Positions 1 through 45,401 of a stretch of DNA of 64,000 nucleotides are shown one piece after another. The notes under the pieces are model-generated. The model worked only from the letters and a program-made list of their open reading frames with translations. It did not search any database and was not told the origin of the DNA. The stretch comes from a virus: positions 64,001 to 128,000 of IMG/VR virus record IMGVR_UViG_3300005805_000047; one strand, written 5' to 3'. Made by a program: the position numbers and the translations under genes. Numbering within the stretch: the first letter of the stretch is position 1; each line of letters begins with the position of its first letter.

Positions 1-2
1 AT

Positions 3-629
3 GGAAATTATGGTTACTTCACAGATGTCTCCTCGGTAAAGCCGGCTGCTACGACCCAAAACGAGAAGACAGAGGACTTTATAAAACGCGTTGGCGAGCA
101 TGCAAAGAATTCCAAACCACAACGTCTGGGTGCGCAGATAATGGGTGGCTTCGTAAATGAAGAAATAGCAGAAATTCGATACCCATGGTCAAAGGTGTCA
201 AAGTCGTCATCGGATGTGGATATTTCCGATGTGGTAAATAAGGAGCCAATATCTGACAGACTTCGCCGTCTCGGCTTCACTGATGCAGAAATTGAATATT
301 TTTACAAAGTGAATGGCGAAAGATCCTTGGATTACATATCGTCGGCGACAATGGCCAGCCTCAAGGATTACCGAAAGGCAATGGAGATCAAGAAGGACTA
401 CGAAGCACGAGGCATTCCGGCAGTATCCTTCGCTCACCCAAACGGAATTGATCCCCTTGATATTTCATCGTATTCGGCTGACCCTAGCCCATCGACGACG
501 ATTGAAAGTGCATTGGCGAGGGCAATCAATGAAGAAGTTGATGAACTCATAGAGAAAATGCTCAAACAAGTGCGCAAAACAAGGGGCAAACTCTGGGAAA
601 TGAGGCCGAAAGCCGGTACTAGGACATGA
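3..629 (+). CDS. 5'-truncated hypothetical protein (frame open from the window edge)
   Basis: Frame 3 has no stop from nt 3 through ORF 141..629; its stop overlaps the next ATG. Confidence 0.7.
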   Translation, partial: GNYGYFTDVSSVKPAATTQNEKTEDFIKRVGEHAKNSKPQRLGAQIMGGFVNEEIAEIRYPWSKVSKSSSDVDISDVVNKEPISDRLRRLGFTDAEIEYFYKVNGERSLDYISSATMASLKDYRKAMEIKKDYEARGIPAVSFAHPNGIDPLDISSYSADPSPSTTIESALARAINEEVDELIEKMLKQVRKTRGKLWEMRPKAGTRT

Positions 630-4650: not shown

Positions 4651-4757
4651 TTGCGCTGTAAGCCTTTGATTATCTAGTATCTTGGTGAAGTATCGGTTGG
4701 GTGCTATACCTAAACTGGAATTCCATTCATCCAATCACTATCACAGAGGAAACCAAG

Positions 4758-6143
4758 ATGTCAGAAGACACAGGCAAGCTTCGCGAGTTGCAGTCAGCAC
4801 TCAGAGCGAAGATGGCAGAAAACAAGCAAATTGCTGACTCTTTCAAGGTCGAAGATGGCACAATCATCGTTGACCAAAAGAGGAAATCAGCATTCGACAA
4901 GAACATGGTCGAGATCAAAGAGCTCAAGGGCTTGATCGACGGCATGGAAGCACTCAACGAAGTGCGCGAGTGGGGTCAGGAAGCAAGCAGCCATTCGGTT
5001 GCCGCTGCCGCCGCGGCAGGTCACTCAGTTCCAACACGTCAACTTCAGAGCATTGGTGAAATGTTCTTGGCGTCAGATGAGTTCAAGTCACTCAATGGTG
5101 GACGCAACGGCGCAAACATGCCTGCCCCTTGGCAGGTCAAGGCGTCGCTCACGACCCACAACTACAACGTCAAGGACGTGTTCTCAGCGATGCCGTCCGC
5201 AGGAAACCTGTCGGGCTTCCAGCGCGGTGGCGGCCTCGGCGATTTCGGTTCGGTTCAGCGTGACCCGATGGTGGCTTCGCCAATGCGCACAAAGCGTGTT
5301 CGCGACCTCTTCCCAGTTCGTCGCACGACTGCTCAGGTCATTGAGTACTTCCGTCAACTCGGATTCACATCAATCTCAAATGCCAACTACGATGCAACAC
5401 TCGGTTACTCGACCGACAATGCCGCAGCGGCAGTTGCTGAGCGTGATGGCTCGACTTTCGGTGCAAAGCCTCAGTCGGCATTTCAGTTCGTTGGTGAGCA
5501 GGCTCCAGTTCGCACACTTGCGCACTGGGAAGCAGCACACCGCAACGTGTTGGCAGATGAACCGCAGCTAAGGTCAATCATTGACAATGAGTTGCTCTAC
5601 GGTCTCCGTCTCCTTGAGGACAATCAAATCCTCAATGGCAACGGCACAGGTGAAAACCTTAAGGGCGTTCTGCAGACAACTGGTATTCAGACTTATGACT
5701 GGAGCGACGGTGCATCTACGCCGGTTCCGGACACCAAGGCTGATGCGATTCGTCGTGCCGCAACCCTCTCGTTCCTTGCATACTACGAGCCTTCGGGCAT
5801 CGTGATGCACCCGAACGACTGGGAAGACATCGAATTGACCAAGGATGCGAACGGCCAATACTTGGTCGCCGTATCAGTGGCAATGGGTGGCGAGCCACGC
5901 GTCTGGCGTATGCCGGTAGTTGAGACCCCAGCAATCGCAGAAGGCACCGCACTTGTCGGTGCGTTCGGTACGGGCGCTCAGCTGTACGACCGTGAAGATG
6001 CAAGCATCCGAATTTCGGAACAGCATGCAGACTTCTTCATCCGTAACGCAATCGTGATCTTGGCAGAACAGAGACTTGCTCTCGCTGTCAAGCGCCCAGA
6101 AGCGTTTGTGAAGGTCTCCTTCAACGCAGCACCTGAAGCCTGA
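4758..6143 (+). CDS. major capsid protein, HK97 fold
   Basis: N-terminal coiled-coil delta domain, VRTLAHW, QILNGNGTGENLKG, IVMHPNDW, FIRNAIVILAEQRLALAVKRPEAF; AGAGGA RBS before ATG 4758. Confidence 0.95.
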   Translation: MSEDTGKLRELQSALRAKMAENKQIADSFKVEDGTIIVDQKRKSAFDKNMVEIKELKGLIDGMEALNEVREWGQEASSHSVAAAAAAGHSVPTRQLQSIGEMFLASDEFKSLNGGRNGANMPAPWQVKASLTTHNYNVKDVFSAMPSAGNLSGFQRGGGLGDFGSVQRDPMVASPMRTKRVRDLFPVRRTTAQVIEYFRQLGFTSISNANYDATLGYSTDNAAAAVAERDGSTFGAKPQSAFQFVGEQAPVRTLAHWEAAHRNVLADEPQLRSIIDNELLYGLRLLEDNQILNGNGTGENLKGVLQTTGIQTYDWSDGASTPVPDTKADAIRRAATLSFLAYYEPSGIVMHPNDWEDIELTKDANGQYLVAVSVAMGGEPRVWRMPVVETPAIAEGTALVGAFGTGAQLYDREDASIRISEQHADFFIRNAIVILAEQRLALAVKRPEAFVKVSFNAAPEA

Positions 6144-24290: not shown

Positions 24291-24498
24291 GTCTTTCTCC
24301 CATTGGTGGTAGCCGTATTTCCAATCGGATCCATACGGACCTTCGTAAGAATCCACGGCATGCCGTACGGCAAGGTGCATTAGTCCATATGCGGCAAAGA
24401 TAAAACCCAGCAAAATCATGCCCAGCATTATTGCACACTGAGTATGGCTTATCAGATAGTTTTATCTGCTAAATGTGTCACAGTGTTAGTATCTGCCA

Positions 24499-25620
24499 AT
24501 GATCAAAATTGGCAACTGTATAGATTTGCTCTCAGAATTACCCGATTGCTCCGTTGACTCAATTGTCACCGATCCACCGTATGAACTTGGGTTTATGGGG
24601 AAATCATGGGATGCATCGGGCATTGCCTACAACACCGAAGTATGGAAGCAGTGCTTGCGGGTACTGAAACCCGGCGCGCACCTGCTGGCTTTCGGTGGGT
24701 CGCGGACTTATCACCGACTCGCTTGCGCCGTTGAGGATTCCGGCTTTGAGATACGCGATCAGATTATGTGGGTGTACGGTTCTGGGTTCCCCAAATCCCT
24801 GAATGTCGGAAAGCAAGAAGGCTGTGAGCAATGGCAGGGCTGGGGAACTGCACTGAAACCTGCCCACGAACCTATTGTCGTAGCCCGCAAGCCAGTAGAA
24901 GGAACAATTACCAATAATGTTATTCAGTGGGGAACTGGTGCTCTCAACATCGATGCTTGCAGGGTTGAGTTTGTTTCCGACGATGACAAAAAAGAAAGCA
25001 CCACAAAGAACCAGCACGAAGATTTCGGAACGGAACCCATGACGAACAACACCGTCTATGGCGACTACTCAATGGTCAAGCCGGCGAATTACAACCCACC
25101 CGGACGCTGGCCGGCGAACCTTATTCACGACGGGAGTGAAGAAGTCGTCTCGCTGTTCCCGAATAGCAAGGGTGGCGCATACCCAGCACGAAGAGGCGAG
25201 GCAGTGGCGACCTCATTTGCGTCTGGACAGGAAACCGAAGGTGGATTCAGGAAAATGGGCGATGATGGTTCTGCGGCGCGATTCTTCTACTGTGCCAAGG
25301 CATCGACGGCAGAGCGAAATGCAGGATTGGAAGGTTTGCCCAAAAAGAAGGCAGACACCAGAAGTGATGTAGCCGCTGGAATGTGGAAGGACAAGAATGC
25401 TCCCCACCAAAACCATCACCCGACTGTAAAACCAGTAACACTAATGCGTTACTTGGTTCGCTTGATTACACCACCCAATGGCACGGTGCTTGACCCATTC
25501 CTCGGATCTGGGACAACCGCAGTGGCGGCCGTACATGAAAATCTGAACTGGGTCGGTTTTGAGATGAATCCCGAGTATGCCGATATCGCCAGACTAAGAA
25601 GCGAGCATGCTAAGTTCTAG
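24499..25620 (+). CDS. DNA N6-adenine/N4-cytosine methyltransferase, beta class
   Basis: TDPPY before HPTVKP and LDPFLGSGTT. Confidence 0.92.
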   Translation: MIKIGNCIDLLSELPDCSVDSIVTDPPYELGFMGKSWDASGIAYNTEVWKQCLRVLKPGAHLLAFGGSRTYHRLACAVEDSGFEIRDQIMWVYGSGFPKSLNVGKQEGCEQWQGWGTALKPAHEPIVVARKPVEGTITNNVIQWGTGALNIDACRVEFVSDDDKKESTTKNQHEDFGTEPMTNNTVYGDYSMVKPANYNPPGRWPANLIHDGSEEVVSLFPNSKGGAYPARRGEAVATSFASGQETEGGFRKMGDDGSAARFFYCAKASTAERNAGLEGLPKKKADTRSDVAAGMWKDKNAPHQNHHPTVKPVTLMRYLVRLITPPNGTVLDPFLGSGTTAVAAVHENLNWVGFEMNPEYADIARLRSEHAKF

Positions 25621-25622
25621 GC

Positions 25623-26885
25623 ATGTTGCATGTCGGTAACTGTATAGATGTCATATCCCAACTTCGAGATGCGAGCGTTGACTCGGTAGTAACTGATCCA
25701 CCATACGAACTCGGGTTCATGGGAAAGTCTTGGGACTCGACAGGAATTGCCTACAATACCGAACTCTGGAGACAGTGCCTGCGCGTACTAAAGCCGGGTG
25801 GTCACCTCATTGCCTTCAGTGGTGCTCGCACGTACCACCGCATGGCCGTTGCGATCGAGGATGCAGGATTTGAGATACGCGACCAAATCATGTGGGTTTA
25901 TGGATCGGGGTTCCCGAAGTCGCTCAACATATCCAAAGCAATAGACAAAATGGTCGGTGCTGACAGAGAGGTCGTCGGAATCGGTACCTCTGGCAAAACA
26001 CGTCATGTGCTCAATGCGGCCAACACGCCCGACACATTCGGCGGCGAATACGAGATAACAAAGGCGGCATCGGAAGAAGCAAAGCAATGGGAAGGCTGGG
26101 GAACAGCATTGAAGCCAGCACACGAACCGATGGTGCTCGCCAGAAAACCACTTGACGGAACGGTCGCAGAGAATGTTCTGGAATACGGAACCGGTGCATT
26201 GAATATAGATGCGACGAGGATTCCTTTTGGCGAGGAACAGATAAATTTGTCCCGCAAGCAGCGTCAGCAGCAATTTGAGGGTGGCATAGATTTCGGTGCC
26301 AGCAGATTGGTGGGCACAGAAATACCGACCTACAAAGAAGGCGGAAGGTGGCCTGCGAACTTCATCCACGACGGCTCAGAAGAAGTTCTGGAGTTGTTCC
26401 CCGATGCCAAAGGTGGAACTTGGAACACCACCAAGGGTGCGAGACACTTCAACAACAATGGCAAGCCAACTGATTACCAAACCAAGGGACAGGATAAATC
26501 AAACGGTTCGGCAGCTCGCTTCTTTTATTGTGCGAAGGCTTCCTCTGCAGAACGAAACCTCGGTCTGGACGAACTACCGGATCGCAGGCAGGACGAGGAC
26601 GACTACGAGAGGGCAGGAACCACCAACCCGAGGAACCGCTCTCAGAAGATGCGCAAGAACCACCACCCAACAGTCAAGCCAGTCGCCCTGATGAGACACC
26701 TCGTCAAGCTTGTCACCCCTCTAAACGGAACAGTCCTTGACCCTTTCCTCGGATCGGGAACCACGGCAGTCGCAGCCACGCTTGAGGGCATCAACTGGGT
26801 CGGATGCGAAATGAATGAGGAGTATGCACAGATAATTTGGGCTCGGGTGAATCACGCAGAGAAATCCGTCAATGAGGATGAATGA
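25623..26885 (+). CDS. DNA N6-adenine/N4-cytosine methyltransferase, beta class (tandem paralogue)
   Basis: Same motifs; catalytic blocks nearly identical to the upstream gene. Confidence 0.92.
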   Translation: MLHVGNCIDVISQLRDASVDSVVTDPPYELGFMGKSWDSTGIAYNTELWRQCLRVLKPGGHLIAFSGARTYHRMAVAIEDAGFEIRDQIMWVYGSGFPKSLNISKAIDKMVGADREVVGIGTSGKTRHVLNAANTPDTFGGEYEITKAASEEAKQWEGWGTALKPAHEPMVLARKPLDGTVAENVLEYGTGALNIDATRIPFGEEQINLSRKQRQQQFEGGIDFGASRLVGTEIPTYKEGGRWPANFIHDGSEEVLELFPDAKGGTWNTTKGARHFNNNGKPTDYQTKGQDKSNGSAARFFYCAKASSAERNLGLDELPDRRQDEDDYERAGTTNPRNRSQKMRKNHHPTVKPVALMRHLVKLVTPLNGTVLDPFLGSGTTAVAATLEGINWVGCEMNEEYAQIIWARVNHAEKSVNEDE

Positions 26886-27712
26886 TGAGCAAGCGGTACC
26901 CAGCAATAGATTTAATTAGTGGAATCGACATTGGAGAAATTCCCCCAACACCGACCGTGCGTGGGTTTAATTTAACCCTAGACAAACCCAGAAAAATTTT
27001 ATTAGAAGCAGCCAGCAACTACGGTTTCCCAATAAGTTTTACGCAAGAACAAAATGGGGTACTCATACAAAATGTGTATCCAGTTCCGAATTTGGCGACA
27101 CAACAAATTTCCTCGTCTTCCAAAGTCGAACTCGGCCTACACACAGAAACAGCGTTTCATCACTATAAGCCAACGGTCGTCCTTTTATTATGTCTACGTG
27201 GTGATCCGAATGCCGTGACGACCTATGCCACCATTGACAAGATTATTGAACATGTAAGCCACGAATCCATAGACACACTCACTCATCCGTGGTTCACCAC
27301 CTCAATTGATGACAGCTTCAGGATGAACGGCGAAAGCGACATGGAGATTCCGTGCTCAATCCTCAGGAAGGCGACCGAAACCGAGTCGTATGAGATTTGC
27401 TACGACCAGGCCCTAATGAAGGGGGTGAATGAGCAGGCAAACCATGCCCTAGAGGAACTCAAACAGGCAATAAATAAGTCAATAGAACAAATCGTCCTCA
27501 GTGCCGGCGATTTACTGGTCATTGACAACACGAGGGCAATCCACGGTCGACTTCCATTTCAGGCCCGCTACGACGGTACGGATCGATGGTTGCAGCGAGT
27601 GCTCGCCATTGACAGCCTTCCGCCCAAAAGTCATGCCACACATTCATTGGACAAAGAGTTCCCGGCGATAGTTTCTGCGAGAGTTGAATTCGTGCCTATC
27701 ACAATAAGTTAG
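26882..27712 (+). CDS. TauD/clavaminate-synthase-like 2OG-Fe(II) dioxygenase
   Basis: LGLHTE, LLLCLR, GDLLVIDN.RAIHGR, RYDG.DRWLQR. Confidence 0.88.
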   Translation: MMSKRYPAIDLISGIDIGEIPPTPTVRGFNLTLDKPRKILLEAASNYGFPISFTQEQNGVLIQNVYPVPNLATQQISSSSKVELGLHTETAFHHYKPTVVLLLCLRGDPNAVTTYATIDKIIEHVSHESIDTLTHPWFTTSIDDSFRMNGESDMEIPCSILRKATETESYEICYDQALMKGVNEQANHALEELKQAINKSIEQIVLSAGDLLVIDNTRAIHGRLPFQARYDGTDRWLQRVLAIDSLPPKSHATHSLDKEFPAIVSARVEFVPITIS

Positions 27713-27722
27713 TATTTCCCAC

Positions 27723-28154
27723 ATGCCAAAAAGTAGAAAAATTCTCAAAAGCCCGCTTCACAAACACTTGCTGATAAACGGCAAAACCCTGACACCGCCG
27801 ACATCCAAGCGCAGGTTGAAGAAATGGCTGAACAAGCTCGTCTATGACATCGGTATGTACAAAATCGGCGGCCCGTACATCAAGTATGTCAAAGCAAAGG
27901 GAAATGCAGGTCTTACGGCAGTCGTAATGATTGAGACTTCACATGTTGCTTTACACATCTGGGAAGAAGGCGACCAGCCGTACTTCCGTTTCGATCTCTA
28001 CACCTGTGGACCCCTGCACCACAAGGCAGTGCTTGAATCAGTGGCGTACTTTATGGATTCACCAGAAATGGAATGGACGGTTTATGATCGAGCAGATGGA
28101 TTCTGGCAGTACGACTTTGGCAGTTGGCCCCTACGTAAATCTACCCACAAATAG
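27723..28154 (+). CDS. speD: S-adenosylmethionine decarboxylase, phage type
   Basis: GLTAVVMIETSHVALHIW, FDLYTCG. Confidence 0.8.
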   Translation: MPKSRKILKSPLHKHLLINGKTLTPPTSKRRLKKWLNKLVYDIGMYKIGGPYIKYVKAKGNAGLTAVVMIETSHVALHIWEEGDQPYFRFDLYTCGPLHHKAVLESVAYFMDSPEMEWTVYDRADGFWQYDFGSWPLRKSTHK

Positions 28155-28710
28155 GTTTGATGTCGCACTCATAGACCCACCTTGGTCGTACTTCGGCGAC
28201 CAGACAAAAGATGGCGCGGCGGCAAAGTTCTACGGCACCCTCAGCGATGAGGAAATCCGTATGCTTCCAGTAAGGGAACTACTGAACGACCGAGCAGTTG
28301 CTTTCGTTTGGGCAACCGCACCGAGGCTTGATGCGGCGCTTGATTCAATAAAAGCCTGGGGGCTTCACTACAGGGGAGTTGCATTCGTGTGGGTAAAAAC
28401 CACCAGGGAAGGAAAACCGATAGGAGCCAGAGGGGTAAGACCTTCGATAGTCAAACCAACATGCGAGTTCGTACTTGCTTGCTCAACGGTACGCAAAGGC
28501 AGACCACTACCAATAGCAGATGAGTCAATCATCAACACCGTACTTGCCCCAACAAGGGCACACTCACACAAGCCGGACGAAGTCCACGAGAGAATTGAAT
28601 CCCTCTACCCAACTGCCACAAAGGTCGAACTGTTTGCTCGCCGACCACGACAAGGTTGGCAGGTATGGGGTAATCAGATAAATCAAACTGCTACGAACGA
28701 ACTCGTATAG
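28117..28710 (+). CDS. MT-A70 family adenine methyltransferase
   Basis: DPPW, FVWVK, HSHKP, ELFARR..GW..WGNQ; start uncertain (frame open from 27931). Confidence 0.88.
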   Translation: MAVGPYVNLPTNRFDVALIDPPWSYFGDQTKDGAAAKFYGTLSDEEIRMLPVRELLNDRAVAFVWATAPRLDAALDSIKAWGLHYRGVAFVWVKTTREGKPIGARGVRPSIVKPTCEFVLACSTVRKGRPLPIADESIINTVLAPTRAHSHKPDEVHERIESLYPTATKVELFARRPRQGWQVWGNQINQTATNELV

Positions 28711-29697
28711 TGGCGTGAACACCCCCACCCCCTCCATGTCGTTCCCGGAAGTCCCGATAGACACGACCTCGGAGTCACCACGACGAACCACGATACGACC
28801 GAACACACGTTCGCCGGAAACCGAACACACGTTCGCCTCAACCAAACAGTTGTTCACAAGGCCAGATTATGGTCATCGGTTGCTTGTTTTCAACGATTGC
28901 TAACTAACAAATGGTGCTAACGAACCCAGATAACGGTTGTCAAAAAACACAGACGAACGACACACAAAAAGAAGCACTCGAAACAGTGTTATCACTTCCG
29001 ATAACACTTTCCAACTAGTTCACAACCGTCGCAACGAAACCCAACTCGTTGAGAAGTTCGTTGTCTGGTGACGAAGGTCAGTCGCAGACGAATACGAAGT
29101 CAAACGTCATACATACTTGTGTTGTTGCATGACGACACACAACACAGCATAGTGATACAACAGAAACCGAACCATAAAGTGTTTGTTGTTGACGAAAGTT
29201 TGACAACAACTTTGATCGTTGAGAAACACAGTTGTCATGGTCGTTCGTTACCCATGACAGTGGACGAATACACAAGGCATACACCTCGCATACACATACC
29301 CCATACCTCACACCACACAGCGAATACGTCATACCCCATAGGTGAATACAACCCGTAGGCAGGGGGCTTTGACCATAGCCAAAGTTTGCAAGTGCCACGG
29401 GTAGTGCTACGGGTATCTACACACATTCACCTACACCACTCAGTAGTAGCACCCCACACCACACAGTAGGTAGTGAGTAGGTAGTAGGTATCACTAGGTA
29501 TCACTCTGATACCACCACAACACTCGTATCTGTTACCCCTGGTTCTATGCCACCCCCACACCCACCCAACTATCCAAGTAGTGAGTAGCACAGTGGTAGC
29601 ACCACAGTAGCAAGGGGGTATCTCAGTGTGTGGTTCAGCAATACTTTCTTTACTACTAACACCACCACACCAATAGTCGTGCCACAATTGATGGAAC
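28711..29697. other. ~1 kb non-coding, A/C-skewed low-complexity tract (candidate origin, packaging or terminus region)
   Basis: No convincing ORF; ACAC/CCAC runs and GTAG/GGTATCACT repeats. Confidence 0.5.
28800..28835. promoter_or_regulatory. two tandem LexA (SOS)-type boxes
   Basis: CGAAC-ACAC-GTTCG at 28800 and 28822 match the actinobacterial CGAAC-N4-GTTCG core. Confidence 0.6.
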
Positions 29698-32600
29698 ATG
29701 GCACTCATAGAGAACCCTTCCAACAAGGTGCTTGACGACCAGATACGAACTGCTATCTCAGTGGTCGCCCAGCAACTGAATACCAAAGCACGACTAGGTG
29801 CTGTTGCTCAGTCCTTTGACCCCGACGCAGTAGACGGTGATGGTGACGGCTTAGTTCAGGACGGTTCACCCTTTGAGAGACCAGCAGTAATAAGTGCCGT
29901 CAGCAAGGCTTCACAACGAATAGGTCAGTTGCTTTCCAAAGCAGGTAGAAGCAAGGAGAGTAGGGCAAGGGCATATCAGCGTAGATACTCAGGCATGTCA
30001 GCACAGGACATAGCAAAGGACGCAGTGCCTGACAGTTTTGAAGGTTGGGTCGCACTCGCTTATGAGAAGTTGAGAGTGGACAATCCAGATCTTCCACCGT
30101 TGTCACCAGACATGACACCAGATGAAGTGAAGCAAACGGTTCGCGCCTTAGAGGACTTTGTAGAAAGCGACCTTGTCTGGTTGATGACAGACGAGAAAGC
30201 GAAAGAGTTTAAGGAACTCAAAAAGACAGACAGAGCAGCCGCCTTTCGTTTAGCAGTAGACGGTGCATTTGACTTCTCGCCAGAAGCAGTCGCAAAAAAC
30301 AGAGAACTACTTGAACACGTTCTCACAACGAACCCACAATACAGAGCATTGGTGGATAAGTTCGGTCACCCATCCATATTCAGGTTTGGACCCGACCTAA
30401 ATAAGTCGCATCTCGCAGAAGGTATGTTCTCAGACTCAGCCGGTATGGGACTGTCGAAGATCGGCAATGTTCGCAAAAAAAGCAGACTACAACCCTTCAA
30501 CAGGGGACTTGGAAAGTGGTTCATGCAGGGAATCATGGAACCAGAGGTTGGTCACAGAAAGACGAAGCGTTGGCTCTCTGACAACACACCAGAAGGGCTA
30601 CTCGTACATGAGTATGGTCACTATTTAGTAGACGCAATCAAAGCACAACTCAGCGACGTCGACAATTATGAAAGAACGAAGCGTTGGCAAGCATTTCGTT
30701 TCGGTGCAGGGGCCGACTGGAAGGAAACCCTCACAGAAATCGGACACCCTGAGTGGTATGACCAATACGCCATAGAGAAACTCAAAAAGACAGAACGAAT
30801 AGAGATAACTCGCATTCGAAAGGATGTGCCAGACGAACTGCCGCACGTTCTCACGGCCTATGGTGAAACAGCACCAGCAGGGGCTTGGGCAGAAGCAATA
30901 GCGGCTCTGTTTGCCCACGAGGGTCGAAACAAAGACTTGGTTAGCCCCGGAATGGTCGAGTTGGTCAATGCCGCCCTTGAACTCCCAGAAGGAAGTGACC
31001 CCACAGAGGCTCTCTTGCCGGCCAGAAGTAAACGTGAGATTGTCCCAGACGGCTTCGCATCGCGCGGCTCGGTCATGGCGATCAACAACGAACGGGACTC
31101 ACGATACGGCGAGATACAGGATCCATACGAACTCACAGCCGAGGTTCTCGGAGATTTGGGCAAAGACGACCCGGTTGGACAAATGGTTCGCAAGTTGGAA
31201 GCCCTCAAAGACGACCCAGAACGATGGGACAAAGTCGAACCGAAGCAAAAGGCATCAATAGAGCGCAGTCTCAACCTACGTAAAGCCAACGAAGAGGAAG
31301 CCGCTCTTCTGGCCGGCGTGTTGATCAATGACCCGGCGTTTGCCGACATGATTCGACGTCACGGTATTTCTAACTACTACTTCGCCCAAGAGGACATGCG
31401 ATTCCCAATCGGGGACGGCACAGATGACGAAATTGACATACGTGGTTCTCTGTATGCAGGTTTCACGCCAGATGAAAGCGATGGTGGACGGTTCTGGCCA
31501 CCACGCATCGTGATTGACATGCTGGGACCCTCGAGCTTGGAGGAAGATCAGACGCTCGACGTTCCCATCCAGCCCGTCAGCGATGAAGAGATACGTAAAG
31601 CCAGAAAGGCCATGAACATACCCGGCGGAGTAACCAGAACACATGTGTCGAAATCGCATCAACACGTAATTCGACATGAGGGTGGACACTCGGTTCATGA
31701 TCTCCTCTGGGAACGTGTCCACCGCGGCGAAATAAAGGGTCGTCGAGCGCAACTCATCCGAGCTTACGGCACAAGCACGTGGGAAGAGTTCTACAAGGAA
31801 CTTGGCCGTCCCGACTTACTTCTTGAATACCAACGCTCGACCAAAGCCGCCAACACCATGGGTTACCCAGGCAGTCTCAAACCAGGCGATGAGATCGCCT
31901 TTATCGACAGCGGCTACGCATGGTCTAACCCACGTGAGTTTTTTGCTGAAACTTTCGCTTCATACACATCGTCAAACCCGGCGTATCGAGAGTTGATGAA
32001 TGATACGGCACTCGAACACATGCAGGCCATGCTCGGCGATGCTGATTCTGGTTCTCTCGAAGAGCCGCCGTCGGTAGATCTCGACATGCCCGGCGATACA
32101 GATGTTCCTGAGCCGCCAGCATGGGACGGGTTCGCATCATCCGGTGGAGAGAAGCCGAAGTCTTATGGCGATGTTCGACGTAACCGCATCAAGGAAGGCA
32201 AAGGAAAGTTCTCTCGATCAGATACTTTCAGAAACACCACGACGGAACAGAAAGTAGACCTCGCAGTCCCGACAAACGAGCAGGACTACATGCTTATGGC
32301 ATGGGATCACATTTTCGAGCGCTTGGGCCTCGACTACGAGACCGTAAAAAAGATTGACCTCACCGACCCGGCAAATCCCAAGTTGCCGCGCCGCTGGAAG
32401 GGTGCGCTCGACGGTCTTGATTTCTACGTGGCCCAGATGCAACGGGACATGCCAGACTTCTCGCCAGACAAGGTCAAGGCCAATAGAGACGCTCTTCGAG
32501 CATCGCTTGATGCCTTTCCTCGAATGCGTGAGGCCGCCGAGCGTCTTGGTATGCCACCACTGACGTCAATGACCGAGGCCACCAAAGAGCGGCTTGCGAT

Positions 32601-35600
32601 CGAGTATTTCCTTGCCGAGTCGAACGACATGTTCCGCAGCGGCAAAGTCCAGAACATCCGCAGCGAGTTCCTCGACATTCTCCCCGTTTATCGACAGTAT
32701 GCAGCCGGAGAAATGACCTGGCAACAGATGCTTGATGATCCAGCGGCTGCCAACTTCTCAAAATACATCCAGAAACTCCAAGACGACGGGACTATTGAGA
32801 AATACGCAAAGGGAATAAACGGCGGCTTCAGCAGAATGTCCGAAACGATACTCATGCCAGGCGATGCTTCGAATGCTTTTGTCGAGGGCAAGCGCTACGA
32901 CCCGAAGTTTGTTCCAGAGGCGGGCGACTGGGGCATCACGGGTAACTCATACGAGGAAGTATTGCTACACGAATACGCCCATTACGTTGATGCGCGGCTT
33001 AGTTCCAGATCAAAAGATGGTGACCCGGCGTCTATCAAAGACCAACTGATGAAGGGTGAACTCTTTGGCCAGGCGAACAACCACATAAAGACCAAATATG
33101 GGCAAACGAATATGAGCGAATTCGCCGCCGAGGCGATTAGTGCAATCATGTCTGGCAATCGAGATGCAGAGGAGATGCTCAGCCCAGAAGCCCGGCAATG
33201 GGCTCGACGTGTTGCCGGTTTCCCGGAGAAAGATCCGGTGTTTACTGGCCGGATACCAGGCAAAAAGCCTTCAGAGGCCGAAGTGTTGGCCGATAGGTTT
33301 GGTCAGTTATGGCGCCGCACAACAGATGGCTTGATGGAGGCGTTGGACAAGGAAAACGGTGTTCGCAGCCGCGATGGAGTTCCGGATGTTCTTGAAACAT
33401 TTGGTGATGCTGTTCGCCGAACGGGACTAAAGCCGCTTCCTGACGTCAACTTCGAGCATGAGGGACGTAAGTTCACCATGCGCGACAACGGAACCGTTTT
33501 TGAGATCGACGTCAACGGCCGCACGGTGGCCACGGCAAGCGTGGTTGAGGGACAGGGTGGCCTACCAGAACTCAACACTGTCGATGTGTTGCCGGGTTAT
33601 GAGGGTATTGCGCCGGATCAAGACCTGCACGACATGGTCGTCGATCATGCTCGAACAAAGTTCCCCTCTGCACGTGCGCCCAAACGCGCTCGAAAGACCG
33701 AAGTGGTAACAGAGGGCTTTGCATCCATGGGTCCAGAGCATCACGATGCACGTGGAATTGACGGGACTCCGGGAACACCAGAATACGCACAATCTGTGGC
33801 CACAGAGCTCGAAGCGGCACGGGCAAGCGGCAAGAAAGTGTTCTTCGACTACAACGGAGAAACCAGAGAAGTCGAAGTCACCGAAGTCTTTGAGAAGAAC
33901 GGCATCCTCTACATGAAGGGAAATGATGCACTCCGTAACGGCGAGGAACGTATGTTCCGACTCGACAGGGTGTCGATGCCCAAGCGCGTTCAGAACCCGG
34001 AGACTGGGGCCAATGAAATAGCCAAGAGACCCGGCAAACCACCACGCAAGCCTGTCCCAGTATTTACGGGTAAAGCGGCCGAAATCTTCGAGGGGGCGAA
34101 ATCTTGGGACGAAGTGGCCCAGCGATTGTCGAAAGGACGTTATGTGTTCTTTGACTTTGAGACAACGGGCATTGAAGAAGGTGAGTTTGGCGAGATGATG
34201 CATCCGGGTGCACCCACGCAGATCGGCCTCGTCGAGATTGTCGATGGCAAAGTAACCCGGCGATGGTCGACACACGTCAATCCGGGTAGGCCGCTGAGCG
34301 TTGATCCGAAAACTGGCCGCTCATGGTCAGCAGACAACCTCAAATACAAAGACCCGGTAACTGGGGAACTTGTAAACATTAGCGACGAGTGGTTGGCAAC
34401 CCAGAAGCCACTCAAGGATGCACTCGAGGAGATGCTTGAGTTCATAGGCCCAGACACCATCTTGGGTGGCCAGAACCATCCTTACGATGACGACGTAATG
34501 AAGCGGGCCTTGGCCGATGCCGGAATTGACGAGTCCCGTTGGAGTCCGGCAGGGTTCATTGACAGCCAGGCGTTGGCTCAATCATTGCTCGACAAGAACA
34601 GCGACGATTACCCGGTAAACGAGAAGGGCTCAAAGACTGTATCGCTTGGTTACCTGGCTAAGTTCCTCGGCCACGACATGGGTGATGGCTGGCATTCGGC
34701 AGATGCAGACTCGGAGGCCTCATGGGAAGCATTCAGTCGCCTGGTCAAGCGCGCCGCAGATCAAGAGAACTCCGGCAAGCCCGTAAGACGGGACTTGTTT
34801 GCTCCCGGTGGTGCGATAAAGGAACATCAAGAGCGGCTCGACGATTACGAACGTCAGAAGCGTGGATGGGACTACAAGGTAAAGAAGTATCAAGAATCCC
34901 AGGCCGCCCAATTGCCTGGTGAAAACCAAGAAGGTTTTGCCTCGACCGGATCAACTCGACGCGCCAAAAACCCGGCAAGATGGGAAACGCTCACGCCGGA
35001 AGAACGCGAAGCCGCAACCCAGGCATCGGCCCAGGCGGCAGTCAATTACATCAACGCACTTCAGGATGCCGGCATTGATGTCGCCACATTACGGGACTTG
35101 GATAGAGCAGAACTTGATTCGATACTCAGAGACCTGGTTCCAGGCGGCGAAGCACGAGTTTCTGATTACGTCACGGGTGATGGCAAGGCCCTCATTGAGG
35201 TGTCGAATGCGACCATGGGCAAAGTATTCATGTCCCTTGGATTCCATGTCCAGGTGATTAGCGACGATCCAAACGAACACCACTTGCTCGAAAATGGCAT
35301 CAACGACATGCAAAAAGCCCTGCAAGATTACGTGGCTTCGGTGGCAAAAGATCCGGATGCGTTGCTCAAAGACGTCATCTTCATGGATTGGGCCGACAAG
35401 AACGGCATCAACTTGGGTTCGCTTAAGGGAAAGAAATTGGAGAAGGCGGCTAAGAAATTTGCCGAAGAATTTGAAATTAACCTATGTCTTTATTACAAGT
35501 CTGGGTCGAACATGCTCTGCGGCGCAAACATCGGCATCGAACGTGAAGAGATGCCCCAACTCGGCGGCCGCATGAAGGGTGACGATACCTTGGCGGCAAA

Positions 35601-38600
35601 GGCAATCAAAGCCGGATTGATGGCAGCCAAAGAGATCAAACTCGACCCGGAAAAGATGGCCGAACTCGAAAAGCGTGACCCGGCAATGGCGGCTCGAATA
35701 AAGGAACTGGCCAACGCTAAGGGCGAAATTAAAAAGCAGGAGAACCTCGAAAAGATTAAAGAATTGGCCATGAGCAAGGATCCAATAGCCAAAGCAATCT
35801 TTGATTCAATGAATTGGAACGACTCAGAAGCCAATGTCGAACCAATAGCCGACAAAGCCGCTGCCGCTCTTGGCATCACCGTCGATAAACCACGTTTCGT
35901 TGACCCGGCAACCATGCTCGGGGCGCAAAACCAACTACAAGGATCGAAAGTCGAGAACATGGCAGACGGCGCAGTTGAGGCCGTACTCGAGGCGCTACCC
36001 ATACTTGAAGCCCGATTCGGACGTAAGCCAACACAAGCCGAACTCATGGATTACCTGGCCAACGAGATCAAGCACGGCCTGTTCCAACCCACGCTGACTG
36101 CCGGATTACCAGGTGGACAGACATACATGCTTGATGGACACCATCGTTGGTCGGGACTGTTGATGGCAAACAAGAAGCTCGAGGCAATGGGGCTCGACAT
36201 ACGGGTGCAACTAAACATCAAGAACTACCAGACGGACATACGTTCTGGTTTGGAACTTGGTCGATCCATTCAGGTTGCTATGGGTGTCAAGGATGCCAAA
36301 CTTTCCGGCGAGGATCCATTCGAATTCAACCCGGATGCGCCAGATTTAACCCCAGAGGAGTTTGATAACGTTGTTTCAGAGATACTTGACCCGGCGAATC
36401 TAGTCGAAAAGATACGGGAAGTTCGAGAAGGCGGCAAGTTTAGAGAAACAGAAGCAGCCGATGTTCCGGGTGGTCAAGAGGCCAGATTGGCGCCGCGAAA
36501 ACGACCCATTCAAGATGTTGTCGACGAAATTACCGGACAAGACATCGCGCTTGACCCAGAGTCCCGTGTAAAGGGTGTAAAGCCGGCTAAAACGGGTTAT
36601 CGAGCAGCCGGCAGCGGCTCCGGGTGGCAATCTGTCGAGGATCATATTGCCGTCGAGATGGAACGTGGAAACAAACTATTCGACACACACCAAGAGTATG
36701 TCGATAAGGGTTATGAGGTTGCTTGGGTTACGCACTCACCCGGCGAAGCAGGAAGATATGTTGTATCTGCCGGCGATGTGGCCGCTTGGCAATCCGGTGA
36801 AATAAAAGTTAAGCCGGAAGATATTGCTGAAGTCGACATGTCTGGGGCCATTCTGGTCGGGACTGATGGCGAAGGCGGCTTCCTCTACGCCAGGCGAAAG
36901 CAATCAAGAGCTGCCAAACAACGTGTTGAGATGCTCAAGGCCGAGGAAGATTACCTGGATCAAATGCTCAATTCAATACCAGGACAGGGCGAAGAAGCAT
37001 TCGCATCAACTAGCCGAGACAGAATAAACAAGCGCGGCCTTGTGGATAGGTTCATGCTCTTGAGAAACCCGGTAGGTGAGGAAGCGCGAGATCTAAAACT
37101 TGACGCCGGGTCAATAAATAAACCAACGGCCATGGATCCAGATAAGTTCTATCAAATAGTCGGAGATGTGCCGGGCATATCTGAATCCGACGAACTCTTG
37201 GCCACAGAGAAACTCACGTCATCACGGGTGAGAAACCTAAAGATGTATCGAGCAACCTACGCCGGCAAGAAGGGTAAAAAGAATCGAGTCTTTGGCACAT
37301 ACAAAACACGGGACGGACAGAAATACTCAATAGCCCAAGATCAAGACGGGATTGAGGGTGCCTATTACGCATACAGGGGTGATAAGAGGCTTGATGAATC
37401 TAAAAGAGTTGCCAAATTAACACTGATACTAAACGACGGCGAAAAAAACGTTCACGACTTATTCAGCATCCACGTCAACGAAGAGGACAGAAAAGCAGGA
37501 TTAGCTCAAGCATTGGTTGAGGTGGCGAAAGCAGACTTCCCAGACGCTACATTTACGGTTCAACGGGTAGTCACACAAGACGGCGCCAACTTCGCTCAGA
37601 ATCTAGAAGAAGAAGGCTTTGCTTCTACGGGCACGATCAGCGTTCCTCTTGACCTTGTCAGTGGCGGCGGCAATACAGATTCGAGTATGCGTGGCGGCGC
37701 GGCACAACGTGATCGAGAAGTGGTTCCGGATGATTGGAATACCCGGCAACAGAAGCGCATTGCCGGCGTTCGAGTTCCGGATCATCTGCGCGACGAATAC
37801 GGTGCGCCGATTCCTGGTGCGCCCATTTATCGAGAAACCATAAAGATTGGTCGAAAAAAATACACGTTTGAGGCCGATGTAAATGGCCTGGTGACCGTTT
37901 ATACGGGACGAAACTACAAACAAGTAGCACAACTGAACCTTGATCGCGGCCACTCTATGGCTGGTGGCGCTCGAGCAGAGAATCCTAATCGACATTACAT
38001 TGACTTTGTATCCGTCGACAAGAAGCATCGACGTAAGGGAATCGCAACCCAGATGGCCGTAATTGCTGAACATGCATATGGTGGCAGCGTCGAACACTCG
38101 ACTGCATTGTCTGACGCCGGGCGAGCATGGCGAGATGCTGACGTAAAGAATCGCGGTGCGGCCGCATTGCCTCTTCGAGATGGGGCGCCCACTATCGACT
38201 CGGTATTCAATGAAGGCTTTGCGTCACGCGGCAACTTCCAGCCAATCCCAACCCAAAACGAAGATCTGATGGGAGATTCATCGCTCGACCAATTGGCCGA
38301 CAAACTCAACCTAGATGAACTAGAAACCCCATCAAATGATTTCGACGAGATCGAACAAATGGCAGCACGTATTGCCGGGCGTATTGCCGGCGGCGAAGCC
38401 ACATTGGCAGAGAAACTTGGGATAACCCCAGAGCAACTCAAGGTGAGATACAGAGAATTAGCCAAAGAAATCAATGACTTTGTCGACAGATTCGTACAGG
38501 ATAAGGACGTTCGAAAAAATGTCAAGCTCGGGTACAAGATTCTTTCCAACGCCGCAATTTTGTTTGGTGCAAAAGGTATGAAAGATTTTCTCTCGACAAT

Positions 38601-39156
38601 CAATCCATCGGCCCAGGGAACCGGGTCGGGTTCGGATGCTTCGAGCTTGCTCGACATAGTGGACATAGTGCTCTCAACGGGACTCCACGATGCTCTTGTT
38701 GCTTACGGCATGAATTTCGCCAACCTAATTGCGACGGAGTATGCCGCGATGCGCTTGGTTAGCAAGCAAAAGGCGAAGGACATGATCGAAGACATACGTG
38801 CTCGAATAGAAGGAACGGGTCAAAAGATTGGAGTTATGTCGACGGAAATGTGGAACAGACTCCGGGGCGCATGGGCAAAGACACGCGCAACTGCACCGAT
38901 TCCTGCAACCACCGGCATAAAAGAGTGGATTATCGCCGGGTCATCGCCAATCTGGGCCGAAATGTCATGGTTTGATTACCAGGCAAAGAGTCGAATCACT
39001 CAACATCTTGAACCAACTAACCAGGCGATCTGGTCAAAGCTTGCCGTCAAAACTGGCCGAAGTCCCGAACTTATTGACATAGCCGCTTATCGGGCTGGGA
39101 TTGGCTATGGCAAACGACGGGTGAAGTCAAAAGACGTCGTCAGGGTGTATCTCTAA
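29698..39156 (+). CDS. 3152-aa multi-enzyme protein (3 zincins, WYL, DEDDh exonuclease, ParB-like, GNATs) with seven GFAS-type linkers
   Basis: HEYGH/HEGGH/HEYAH; RMFRLDRV; FDFETTG...HSADAD; DGHHRW; DRKAGLA and HRRKGIA. Confidence 0.9.
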   Translation: MALIENPSNKVLDDQIRTAISVVAQQLNTKARLGAVAQSFDPDAVDGDGDGLVQDGSPFERPAVISAVSKASQRIGQLLSKAGRSKESRARAYQRRYSGMSAQDIAKDAVPDSFEGWVALAYEKLRVDNPDLPPLSPDMTPDEVKQTVRALEDFVESDLVWLMTDEKAKEFKELKKTDRAAAFRLAVDGAFDFSPEAVAKNRELLEHVLTTNPQYRALVDKFGHPSIFRFGPDLNKSHLAEGMFSDSAGMGLSKIGNVRKKSRLQPFNRGLGKWFMQGIMEPEVGHRKTKRWLSDNTPEGLLVHEYGHYLVDAIKAQLSDVDNYERTKRWQAFRFGAGADWKETLTEIGHPEWYDQYAIEKLKKTERIEITRIRKDVPDELPHVLTAYGETAPAGAWAEAIAALFAHEGRNKDLVSPGMVELVNAALELPEGSDPTEALLPARSKREIVPDGFASRGSVMAINNERDSRYGEIQDPYELTAEVLGDLGKDDPVGQMVRKLEALKDDPERWDKVEPKQKASIERSLNLRKANEEEAALLAGVLINDPAFADMIRRHGISNYYFAQEDMRFPIGDGTDDEIDIRGSLYAGFTPDESDGGRFWPPRIVIDMLGPSSLEEDQTLDVPIQPVSDEEIRKARKAMNIPGGVTRTHVSKSHQHVIRHEGGHSVHDLLWERVHRGEIKGRRAQLIRAYGTSTWEEFYKELGRPDLLLEYQRSTKAANTMGYPGSLKPGDEIAFIDSGYAWSNPREFFAETFASYTSSNPAYRELMNDTALEHMQAMLGDADSGSLEEPPSVDLDMPGDTDVPEPPAWDGFASSGGEKPKSYGDVRRNRIKEGKGKFSRSDTFRNTTTEQKVDLAVPTNEQDYMLMAWDHIFERLGLDYETVKKIDLTDPANPKLPRRWKGALDGLDFYVAQMQRDMPDFSPDKVKANRDALRASLDAFPRMREAAERLGMPPLTSMTEATKERLAIEYFLAESNDMFRSGKVQNIRSEFLDILPVYRQYAAGEMTWQQMLDDPAAANFSKYIQKLQDDGTIEKYAKGINGGFSRMSETILMPGDASNAFVEGKRYDPKFVPEAGDWGITGNSYEEVLLHEYAHYVDARLSSRSKDGDPASIKDQLMKGELFGQANNHIKTKYGQTNMSEFAAEAISAIMSGNRDAEEMLSPEARQWARRVAGFPEKDPVFTGRIPGKKPSEAEVLADRFGQLWRRTTDGLMEALDKENGVRSRDGVPDVLETFGDAVRRTGLKPLPDVNFEHEGRKFTMRDNGTVFEIDVNGRTVATASVVEGQGGLPELNTVDVLPGYEGIAPDQDLHDMVVDHARTKFPSARAPKRARKTEVVTEGFASMGPEHHDARGIDGTPGTPEYAQSVATELEAARASGKKVFFDYNGETREVEVTEVFEKNGILYMKGNDALRNGEERMFRLDRVSMPKRVQNPETGANEIAKRPGKPPRKPVPVFTGKAAEIFEGAKSWDEVAQRLSKGRYVFFDFETTGIEEGEFGEMMHPGAPTQIGLVEIVDGKVTRRWSTHVNPGRPLSVDPKTGRSWSADNLKYKDPVTGELVNISDEWLATQKPLKDALEEMLEFIGPDTILGGQNHPYDDDVMKRALADAGIDESRWSPAGFIDSQALAQSLLDKNSDDYPVNEKGSKTVSLGYLAKFLGHDMGDGWHSADADSEASWEAFSRLVKRAADQENSGKPVRRDLFAPGGAIKEHQERLDDYERQKRGWDYKVKKYQESQAAQLPGENQEGFASTGSTRRAKNPARWETLTPEEREAATQASAQAAVNYINALQDAGIDVATLRDLDRAELDSILRDLVPGGEARVSDYVTGDGKALIEVSNATMGKVFMSLGFHVQVISDDPNEHHLLENGINDMQKALQDYVASVAKDPDALLKDVIFMDWADKNGINLGSLKGKKLEKAAKKFAEEFEINLCLYYKSGSNMLCGANIGIEREEMPQLGGRMKGDDTLAAKAIKAGLMAAKEIKLDPEKMAELEKRDPAMAARIKELANAKGEIKKQENLEKIKELAMSKDPIAKAIFDSMNWNDSEANVEPIADKAAAALGITVDKPRFVDPATMLGAQNQLQGSKVENMADGAVEAVLEALPILEARFGRKPTQAELMDYLANEIKHGLFQPTLTAGLPGGQTYMLDGHHRWSGLLMANKKLEAMGLDIRVQLNIKNYQTDIRSGLELGRSIQVAMGVKDAKLSGEDPFEFNPDAPDLTPEEFDNVVSEILDPANLVEKIREVREGGKFRETEAADVPGGQEARLAPRKRPIQDVVDEITGQDIALDPESRVKGVKPAKTGYRAAGSGSGWQSVEDHIAVEMERGNKLFDTHQEYVDKGYEVAWVTHSPGEAGRYVVSAGDVAAWQSGEIKVKPEDIAEVDMSGAILVGTDGEGGFLYARRKQSRAAKQRVEMLKAEEDYLDQMLNSIPGQGEEAFASTSRDRINKRGLVDRFMLLRNPVGEEARDLKLDAGSINKPTAMDPDKFYQIVGDVPGISESDELLATEKLTSSRVRNLKMYRATYAGKKGKKNRVFGTYKTRDGQKYSIAQDQDGIEGAYYAYRGDKRLDESKRVAKLTLILNDGEKNVHDLFSIHVNEEDRKAGLAQALVEVAKADFPDATFTVQRVVTQDGANFAQNLEEEGFASTGTISVPLDLVSGGGNTDSSMRGGAAQRDREVVPDDWNTRQQKRIAGVRVPDHLRDEYGAPIPGAPIYRETIKIGRKKYTFEADVNGLVTVYTGRNYKQVAQLNLDRGHSMAGGARAENPNRHYIDFVSVDKKHRRKGIATQMAVIAEHAYGGSVEHSTALSDAGRAWRDADVKNRGAAALPLRDGAPTIDSVFNEGFASRGNFQPIPTQNEDLMGDSSLDQLADKLNLDELETPSNDFDEIEQMAARIAGRIAGGEATLAEKLGITPEQLKVRYRELAKEINDFVDRFVQDKDVRKNVKLGYKILSNAAILFGAKGMKDFLSTINPSAQGTGSGSDASSLLDIVDIVLSTGLHDALVAYGMNFANLIATEYAAMRLVSKQKAKDMIEDIRARIEGTGQKIGVMSTEMWNRLRGAWAKTRATAPIPATTGIKEWIIAGSSPIWAEMSWFDYQAKSRITQHLEPTNQAIWSKLAVKTGRSPELIDIAAYRAGIGYGKRRVKSKDVVRVYL

Positions 39157-41723: not shown

Positions 41724-41738
41724 AATTTATCAAACAAG

Positions 41739-41811
41739 TGGGCCGAGCGGGGATTGAACCCGCGACCGTCACCTTATAAGAGTGATGCTCTAACCACTGA
41801 GCTACCGGCCC
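41739..41811 (-). tRNA. tRNA-Ile(UAU)
   Basis: GGGCCGGTAGCTCAGTGGTTAGAGC...TCACT-CTTATAA-GGTGA...GGTTCAATCC...TCGGCCCA cloverleaf; CCA not encoded. Confidence 0.9.
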
Positions 41812-41852
41812 CAGAAGGGGCGGTCATATCAACGGGACTGGGCATTGATGTG

Positions 41853-41925
41853 TGGGCCCGGTGGGGTTCGAACCCACGGCCAAGGCATTATGAGTGCCCT
41901 GCTCTAACCACTGAGCTACAGGCCC
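41853..41925 (-). tRNA. tRNA with CAU anticodon, probably Ile2 (lysidine type)
   Basis: GGGCCTGTAGCTCAGTGGTTAGAGC...GGGCA-CTCATAA-TGCCT...GGTTCGAACCC; C4-G69/C5-G68 pairs favour Ile2 over Met. Confidence 0.85.
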
Positions 41926-44008: not shown

Positions 44009-44371
44009 ATGGCTAAACAAACAAGACGAAATAAACGAAATAAACGAAACCAGCAACCAGAGCTACTGGACAGATCGGACATTCTTGGCCTCGCCCACGA
44101 AGCTGTCACCGTTGCTCGTAATGAAAAGTATGGCGAACCACAAGATGACTTCTCTTGCACATCCGAGTTGTGGGATTCCTACATTGCTCGACTAATCCAG
44201 GTTCGTGGTTACCCAAACCTCAGACCGTCTGACGTTCCGGTAATGATGATCCTTCTAAAGATCTCTCGAATAGCTCAGTCGCCCGGCGATGCAGATCATT
44301 GGGTCGATATTGCCGGCTATGCCGCTATCGGCGCAGAGTGCGCTTCAGAAGAAGAGGATTGCTGTAACTAA
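44009..44371 (+). CDS. DUF6378-like protein
   Basis: R...YG.P.DDF...W, V..MMILLKISR, DHWVDIAGYAA. Confidence 0.75.
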   Translation: MAKQTRRNKRNKRNQQPELLDRSDILGLAHEAVTVARNEKYGEPQDDFSCTSELWDSYIARLIQVRGYPNLRPSDVPVMMILLKISRIAQSPGDADHWVDIAGYAAIGAECASEEEDCCN

Positions 44372-45070
44372 AAAAGTGAAGTGTTTATCTCTTCATTCGG
44401 ATCTGAGTGAGCGGCTTTAACAAGGTCGCTTATTGCCCTTGCGCCACCAAGCATAATCAACGTGTGGCAAGCATCAATCAAAGCTGACGGATAGTTTCCG
44501 TGTTTTGAGTAAAGGGAATCGGCCATATCTACTGCCGCTTCGCGCGTATTGCGCTCATACGCTTTCATCAAGGCAATCCGTTCCTCTTCCTGTCGAAGCA
44601 AGTGCTCTTCGGCGAGGCTGTTCTGATGATCCTCGTAGAGGTCTTGTATCTCTTGTTGTTCTTGTTCGGTCACTCTGCCACCCTAGCGTCAACAAAATCG
44701 AAGTGTCTTGCCACCTCAACCCCAAACTCATCCGAAAGATCGCCATAAGCAAGTTCTCTCGCATCGAGTTCATCGGTTGTCGTAGCCGCAAGCGTTATTG
44801 AGCGAATCGTGCTTATCGTGGCGAGGGTCTTGTTCGCCCGGAAGGTGACCAAATACGTCTGCTCAAAGTCCAAGTCGCTCATGAATCGAGACCACACTTC
44901 GGACAGTAGGAGTCATACTCGCTCGGCCCGTGATCACAGAAATCCAAATTCTCCTTCTCGAGCGCACGATTGAGAAAGTGAATAGTGCCGAGAATGACAA
45001 GGCCAAATAAATAGAAGGCGATCCATAAGTTCATAAATCCAGAATACACCTGCCGCATCTGTTGACGCAC

Positions 45071-45397: not shown

Positions 45398-45401
45398 AGT
45401 T

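Follow-up and report, generated by a model that had tools for sequence, protein, structure and literature searches.

Polyvalent proteins are giant multidomain proteins of phages and conjugative elements, which are predicted to enter the virion, to be injected from it and to undergo proteolytic processing (Iyer, Burroughs, Anand, de Souza and Aravind 2017, PMC5512222). Zincins were proposed as the processing enzymes, and the assemblin-like peptidases found in such proteins always lie at the C terminus (PMC5512222). Proteolysis at short defined sites is found in other viral systems: in T4, phiKZ and SPN3US the prohead protease uses one motif to process numerous head and ejection proteins, the SPN3US enzyme preferring Ser at P1' (PMC10052503), and herpesvirus assemblin has an architecture of N-terminal protease plus release site (PMC4498786). 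Here we describe a recurring linker motif in a 3152-amino-acid (aa) open reading frame (ORF) of the complete, 150,897-bp IMG/VR record IMGVR_UViG_3300005805_000047, which carries direct terminal repeats; the whole stretch of 64,000 nucleotides that was analysed (bases 64001-128000 of the record) is referred to as the window. Like the polyvalent proteins of Iyer and colleagues, the giant proteins of this genome combine zincin, ArdC-N, ParB-like, GNAT and nuclease domains, but they differ in an N-terminal protease, in a linker signal that runs genome-wide and takes clade-specific versions, and in the marking of the tail tape measure protein by the same signal.

The 3152-aa ORF is a phage polyvalent protein, in which unrelated enzyme domains (zincins, WYL, DEDDh, ParB/Srx and GNAT) share one chain. 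Seven copies of [DE][GA]FAS.[GS] start at aa 451, 810, 1339, 1745, 2433, 2639 and 2839, where the composition of the protein predicts 0.0025 copies (and 0.05 copies of the shorter GFAS). In window coordinates, the protein and its parts are as follows.

29698..39156, plus strand: 3152-aa polyvalent protein P0001 (ORF translation), eight modules and seven linker motifs
29698..31050, plus strand: module 1, tag and zincin-1; cluster A paralogue of modules 2 and 3, HEYGH nearly invariant
29803..29889, plus strand: N-terminal 29-aa tag (aa 36-64, DGDGDG..VQDGSPFERP), also in the protease-headed polyprotein
31048..31068, plus strand: linker motif 1, DGFASRG
31051..32127, plus strand: module 2, zincin-2 with an M34/anthrax-LF/PPEP-like fold; weak Pfam ATLF match
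32125..32145, plus strand: linker motif 2, DGFASSG
32128..33714, plus strand: module 3, zincin-3 and an uncharacterised tail; cluster A, HExxH nearly invariant, no Pfam match
33712..33732, plus strand: linker motif 3, EGFASMG; column kept in 27 of 27 aligned homologues
33715..34932, plus strand: module 4, WYL and DEDDh (RNase_T) exonuclease (PF13280, PF00929; phrog_192)
34930..34950, plus strand: linker motif 4, EGFASTG; a conservation island in a variable, gapped linker
34933..36996, plus strand: module 5, unknown region and ParB/Srx-fold domain (DGHHRW), from fold matches
36994..37014, plus strand: linker motif 5, EAFASTS, a degenerate copy
36997..37614, plus strand: module 6, optional GNAT-like cassette; cluster G, in 3 of about 30 homologues
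37612..37632, plus strand: linker motif 6, EGFASTG
37615..38214, plus strand: module 7, GNAT acetyltransferase; cluster D, PF00583 at 20.9 bits against a cut-off of 20.7, AlphaFold2 confidence (pLDDT) 80-93
38212..38232, plus strand: linker motif 7, EGFASRG
38215..39153, plus strand: module 8, conserved C-terminal module; cluster E, last in nearly all homologues

Modules 1 to 3 are paralogous zincins whose HExxH is invariant or nearly so among homologues. An AlphaFold2 model of module 2 (predicted template modelling score 0.80) gave best fold matches that are all zincins, including anthrax lethal factor (LF) and PPEP-1/Zmp1, at weak E-values. In module 4 both domains score above the Pfam cut-off (22.7 bits for PF13280 and 39.1 bits for PF00929), and a search for the WYL-exonuclease module as a stand-alone protein gave three forms only, weak or partial. 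The segment aa 366-542 of module 5 matched PDB entry 1vk1 at E 8.5e-6 and free serine kinase at E 5e-4, while module 8 had no family match and no match in the ESM Atlas. MPTase-PolyVal (PF18818), a metallopeptidase domain that is typical of the polyvalent class without being obligatory, is absent from the 3152-aa ORF and occurs only in a neighbouring 4898-aa ORF; the 3152-aa ORF itself is also without an assemblin-fold protease. An initial annotation, made from the DNA letters and their translations, had listed the seven motifs at exactly these positions. Its domain calls stand for the three zincins, the WYL and DEDDh pair, the ParB-like domain and the second GNAT; the first GNAT (module 6) is folded in the AlphaFold2 model described next but has GNAT fold matches at weak E-values only.

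Structure prediction places the motif between folds, as that annotation had proposed. Two AlphaFold2 models, of aa 440-830 and aa 2385-2900, cover 5 of the 7 sites, and all five lie in low-confidence regions (predicted local distance difference test, pLDDT, mostly below 50) that separate folds of pLDDT 80-95. Motifs 5, 6 and 7 fall in coil of pLDDT below 50 (residues 44-88, 236-273 and 441-477 of the second model), and motif 2 lies within such a segment of the first (residues 346-391). Motif 1 sits at the edge of one: model residues 1-16 hold most of the motif, and its last residues border a helix at 15-24. The sites number n-1 for n modules, with none at either terminus of the protein. Aligning 27 homologues revealed the motif as an island of identity amid variable, often gapped linkers, and a logo of 193 distinct sites reads [D/E]-G-F-A-S-[R/T/V]-G with unconserved flanks and an invariant Ser. 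Over the 30 sites of the genome the codons include all four for Gly, both for Phe, all four for Ala and five for Ser (AGT among them); such free synonymous choice indicates selection on the peptide rather than the DNA, a point that the initial annotation had made from the seven sites alone.

The motif also marks where modules are exchanged. We found 33 homologues of the 3152-aa ORF, all metagenomic, of which about 28 close ones keep 3-8 strict copies each. When the homologues were split at the motifs and the pieces clustered, a layout emerged in which A-A-A-B-C is fixed and E comes last, with variable modules between C and E, namely clusters D, F, G, H, J and K (91-255 aa) and the 666-aa cluster I. 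Such modules may occur, be missing, be doubled or give way to others, and in every case the change falls exactly between two motifs. Polyproteins headed by a protease domain, described below, behave alike: their module types, more than 30 of them, change order at the sites from one genome to the next, and the ArdC module, fifth in this genome, lies near the C-terminal end in others. Linker position, retention in homologues and exchange exactly at the motif together make a plug-in cassette architecture, which had been suggested from the single ORF, well supported. Exchange at precisely this element would equally be expected of a DNA recombination junction for module exchange whose encoded peptide is functionless, an explanation that we find barely credible: the codons vary at every position and leave few bases in common, which largely refutes it, the peptide persists between proteins 33% identical, and the tape measure protein retains sites although it exchanges no modules.

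A six-frame scan of the whole genome located the motif in only three ORFs besides the 3152-aa ORF. These four ORFs hold 30 sites, and no other ORF of at least 100 aa has a strict-motif site. The three further proteins are the following.

Genome 44076-58772: 4898-aa polyprotein, directly after the portal gene; Peptidase_S78 domain at aa 19-165
Genome 60259-64629, plus strand, its C-terminal end at window 1..629: 1456-aa protein with a KTSC domain
Genome 24043-28914, minus strand, outside the window (L174:11047-15915): tail tape measure protein, 1623 aa, phrog_167

The 4898-aa polyprotein begins with the only Peptidase_S78 domain of the genome, 36% identical to the maturation protease of Gordonia phage Gray. 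Past this protease it carries an anti-restriction module of ArdC-N and MPTase-PolyVal (PF18818), a DUF2958 domain and five KTSC domains, and its 19 G[FL][AS]S sites have recognisable Pfam or PHROG domains between them; ArdC (aa 1056-1338), for example, lies between sites 1042 and 1370, and DUF2958 (aa 1619-1702) between sites 1595 and 1719. Two sites mark the 1456-aa protein, both upstream of the window. The tape measure gene is flanked by tail chaperone, tube and sheath genes, and its product has one site at aa 61 (DEGLASRG) and another at aa 643 (GAGFASSG), the latter inside a poly-Gly stretch.

A second shared element links two of these proteins. The tag at aa 36-64 of the 3152-aa ORF matches aa 420-448 of the 4898-aa polyprotein (genome 45333-45419) at 65% identity (E 2e-7), and it is near-invariant in all full-length homologues of the 3152-aa ORF, even those about 33% identical. 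The 1456-aa protein is without it. A profile of the tag matched 661 protein clusters; of the 148 top matches scanned, 37 carry the tag after an N-terminal S78 protease, and most of the remainder carry it near the N terminus of HExxH proteins. The first linker motif comes 390 residues after the tag, and no site follows it directly. The tag may be a calcium-binding or capsid-loading element. It also occurs in tandem in small proteins of 80-230 aa, and in eight copies in one 781-aa protein.

Comparison with relatives revealed that the motif itself differs between genomes. Homologues of the protease domain were found on 48 viral contigs, and the close ones have 8-20 sites per polyprotein, often truncated. 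Among 15 related, mostly complete genomes (capsid protein about 70% and protease about 75% identical), 13 have protease-headed ORFs of 2916-4807 aa with an N-terminal protease followed by site-bearing cargo. These 13 ORFs have almost no G[FL][AS]S.G and instead contain 4-21 copies of [R/K]-[L/F]-S-S-G. The switch extends to the other marked proteins of each genome, as three genomes illustrate.

G000 (this genome): G[FL][AS]S.G 12, 6, 2 and 2 times in the four ORFs; [FLM][AS]SG at background level only
G007: no G[FL][AS]S.G in those ORFs; [FLM][AS]SG 16, 9 and 2 times (protease ORF, next giant ORF, tape measure)
G008: no G[FL][AS]S.G; [FLM][AS]SG 12, 5, 4 and 3 times in the equivalent ORFs

The counts given for G007 and G008, both complete genomes, apply to [RK][LFM]SSG. 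Two motif versions thus co-vary across genomes, which is new here. The tape measure orthologues of G007 and G008, 37% identical, carry each their own genome's version (DEGLASRG here, KRFSSG and KKLSSG there); the N-terminal site aligns across the orthologues, and the second lies in a central, poorly aligning region. Distant clusters use further versions, RGLASG, GLSSG, GLAS[ST]S and GMAS; polyproteins with the GLAS[ST]S version and a P0154-type protein were not joined on one genome among contigs that are too short for this. Single sites near the C terminus of short protease-scaffold proteins (TGLASVG, RMASRG) are suggestive and inconsistent. The acidic residue at the front of the motif is clade-specific: an orthologue of the 3152-aa ORF in G004, 33% identical, has five xGFASRG sites in which x is Q, V, R, P and P, and the residue before Gly in protease polyproteins may be D, R, E, S, F, Y or others. 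What stays constant is a hydrophobic-small-Ser core with a nearby Gly, and all target proteins of a genome share one version. Clade-specific flanks combined with one version per genome call for a trans-acting reader that co-evolves with its sites, which makes the linker signal a genome-specific code read in trans.

That versions differ between otherwise close phages would also fit a host protease that cuts the polyproteins after injection, the versions mirroring host taxa; it is also only in the infected cell that the tape measure and the capsid cargo come together. We regard this as very improbable, since no host protease with matching specificity was identified and every polyprotein family carries a phage protease in cis.

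We favour the view that the motif represents the endoproteolytic processing sites of virion-delivered polyvalent proteins, to which we assign a probability of roughly 55%, inferring cleavage, scissile bond, enzyme and packaging from sequence. An endoprotease site is suggested by the linker position, the n-1 rule, the fusion of a protease to the largest of the marked proteins, the co-evolving reader and the precedents of prohead proteases and assemblin. The same code marks every large protein that is expected to exit the virion (the 4898-aa, 1456-aa and 3152-aa proteins and the tape measure), and the 29-aa tag is presumably used for loading the cargo. In the 3152-aa protein, eight independently folding modules are strung on disordered linkers whose sole conserved element is x-G-[F/L]-[A/S/G]-S-x-G. 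A phage-encoded protease would recognise this element and cut it, the probable target being the bond that joins the small residue to the invariant Ser (between A and S in G-F-A-S-R-G), so that each module would become a separate effector, either within the capsid or once ejected. Since one and the same signal flanks each module, insertion, loss or relocation of a module would leave release intact, which would explain the cassette shuffling.

The initial annotation had left open a protease site or a repeated docking signal. An uncut, linear signal that is bound or modified would account for several of the same observations, whether it gave proteins that pass the portal and tail channel a handle for docking or translocation, or was a target of Ser glycosylation or phosphorylation. 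The motif is confined to proteins expected to exit via the tail, the tape measure included; its Ser is invariant; and genome-specific versions call for some co-evolving reader, which is not necessarily a protease. Such a signal appears improbable to us nonetheless, given that the sites sit mid-linker between modules in n-1 copies, that the 29-aa tag already offers one loading signal per protein, that up to 27 copies per chain are hard to justify for docking, and that cleavage is favoured both by the protease fusion and by known prohead processing directed by a motif. Of the two alternatives in that annotation, cleavage is therefore the better explanation, inferred as it is, and the plug-in cassettes that either was meant to produce are borne out.

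The scissile bond is probably the [A/S/G]-Ser pair, by likeness to herpesvirus assemblin, whose consensus scissile bond is Ala-Ser. We also considered a cut directly after the acidic residue and disfavour it, as the range of residues found there in the protease polyproteins and the G004 orthologue is too wide for P1. Prp-type processing between Phe and Ala, known from Firmicute L27 and phage 80alpha, is likewise unlikely, as the phage genome has no Prp and the host is actinobacterial; to our knowledge Actinobacteria do not use it.

As the reader of the sites we favour, at a little short of even odds, the HK97-type S78 prohead protease that heads the largest polyprotein, over a zincin or a host protease. 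S78 is the only protease common to all the punctuated polyproteins. In line with the proposal of Iyer et al. 2017 for polyvalent proteins (PMC5512222), the sites might instead be cut by a zinc metallopeptidase, the candidates being the ArdC-type metallopeptidase (MPTase) and the three M34-like zincins; it could act while still in the producing cell or once ejected. MPTase-PolyVal lies within the 4898-aa ORF and is present in the code-bearing genomes G000 and G008 and absent from the code-less G002, G006 and G011; this correlation is confounded, in that genomes without the MPTase lack the polyprotein as a whole. All 13 [RK][LF]SSG polyproteins have one HExxH, module 2 resembles PPEP-1/Zmp1 and anthrax LF, which cut linkers sequence-specifically, and a soluble or co-ejected enzyme would explain the tape measure sites more easily. 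A zincin reader, serious rival though it is, seems unlikely to us: no zincin family is common to all the systems, the first zincin module finds no match in 14 of the 15 relatives (E<=1e-5), and of the 22 protease-headed polyproteins above 1500 aa in which HExxH is missing, 17 still have at least 5 sites, so that zincins in cis are not needed.

Several observations weigh against cleavage by the prohead protease. The capsid protein has no conserved site of the linker type. The tape measure carries sites, so the substrates are not head-internal only; myovirus tails assemble apart from heads, and a prohead-confined protease should thus not reach this protein. Three related genomes with short protease-scaffold genes (G002, G006 and G011) retain a protease about 73-75% identical and have tape measures without sites; they have neither polyprotein nor MPTase, and the code thus tracks the polyproteins rather than the protease as such. 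Finally, the protease domain is nearly alike between versions, with five discriminating positions only. One of these directly follows the catalytic His (L002:2357-2362, protease residues 61-62): residue 62 is Ser in 11 of 11 proteases with G-F-A-S versions and Asn in 11 of 13 with L-S-S-G, two genomes breaking the rule. This position may be a specificity determinant, though the correlation is imperfect.

Processing by the S78 protease would resemble the prohead systems of T4 (gp21, L/I-x-E), phiKZ (gp175) and SPN3US (gp245; both A/S/G-x-E) in that one protease and a short consensus serve many virion proteins, some with multiple sites. Those enzymes cut mostly N-terminal propeptides of separate products, after Glu, whereas the present system has an HK97/S78-type protease, up to about 20 unrelated modules per chain, a hydrophobic-small-Ser core and a tail protein among those marked. 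The herpesvirus UL26 assemblin-scaffold shares an N-terminal protease of the same fold, fused to cargo and self-freed at a defined site, but has two sites, scaffold as cargo and a hydrophobic residue at P3, compared with a string of enzymes and a hydrophobic residue at P2 here. The 29-aa tag recalls the capsid-targeting sequence of T4 internal proteins, in that a short common N-terminal peptide may load unrelated cargo; unlike that sequence, it has no directly following site, is internal in the protease polyprotein and is absent from the 1456-aa protein. RNA virus and retrovirus polyproteins are likewise single products cut at recurring linkers by an encoded protease, but they serve genome expression, and the present ones would serve delivery of virion cargo. 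We know of no precedent for polyprotein cargo delivery as a general theme in tailed phages.

The full-text literature that we searched describes no fixed inter-domain signal, no genome-specific versions, no presence in a tape measure and no N-terminal assemblin-like protease at the head of such chains, and 'GFASRG' gave zero matches; this and the 2017 account (PMC5512222) agree with the initial annotation, which knew of no fixed signal in polyvalent proteins. Processing of these proteins has thus been predicted since 2017 with no site or rule known, and the motif makes the hypothesis testable. As a seven-residue signal that gives module boundaries directly and co-varies over four genes per genome, it can be used to parse giant phage proteins from metagenomes, hundreds of them, into inter-site pieces that are each a candidate independent effector, whether anti-restriction ArdC, nuclease, acetyltransferase, zincin or one of many unknowns. 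If the capsid protease does read the motif, its reach to the tape measure would change the prohead-only view of such enzymes, and a short, portable cleavage code with orthogonal versions could serve protein engineering. In its fullest form, which we put forward tentatively and would on balance bet against, the proposal is that a family of freshwater actinophages marks its whole ejected set, cargo polyproteins and tape measure alike, by a genome-specific cleavage code read by the capsid maturation protease beyond the prohead, each anti-defence effector being plug-and-play and one tagged chain of up to about 5400 residues delivering at least 20 proteins.

The genome is that of a myovirus-type actinophage, with genes for a portal, an HK97-type capsid protein, a sheath, a tube and a tape measure. 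Two WhiB-family genes, at window 12742-12951 (genome 76742-76951) and genome 139871-140062, identify the host as actinobacterial; the G+C content of the window is 50%. By capsid protein, the closest cultured relatives are Gordonia phages GMA6 and Gray at 44-47% identity, and the linker motif is absent from both. Searches of 50,697 deposited phage genomes (BLASTN and TBLASTN) gave no match to the 3152-aa ORF.

The head module of the window includes the following gene.

4701..6143, plus strand: major capsid protein, phrog_10, without a conserved linker motif

An FLAS at the boundary of its delta domain and N-arm was considered as a candidate site and dropped, as it is not kept in 58 relatives. 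Many capsid relatives (L060-L139) have G-x-[F/Y]-A-[A/S]-A about 20 residues ahead of the conserved N-arm motif IGEMF. This stretch is where the delta domain should be removed; poly-Ala stands there in the present protein (window about 4990-5040).

At least five DNA methyltransferase genes (window 16925-19006, 24499-28710 and 58486-59127), three of them directly upstream of the polyvalent protein gene, suggest heavy investment in anti-restriction. Adjacent genes for tRNA-Ile(TAT) and tRNA-Met(CAT) lie on the minus strand at window 41738-41925. Between two motif-bearing ORFs, genome 58822-60255 encodes a 477-aa protein that has a stretch of about 90 residues of near-pure Asp/Glu and no family match; a scaffold-like role or DNA mimicry is conceivable. 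A 221-aa protein at window 999-1664, with a Cys/His-rich RYWRPIMRKPGGFRRC...CHHPGMKNC region, has its own gene here, and its counterpart lies inside the short protease-scaffold proteins of relatives L040 and L043, so that the head-module genes look like a split and expanded protease-scaffold gene.

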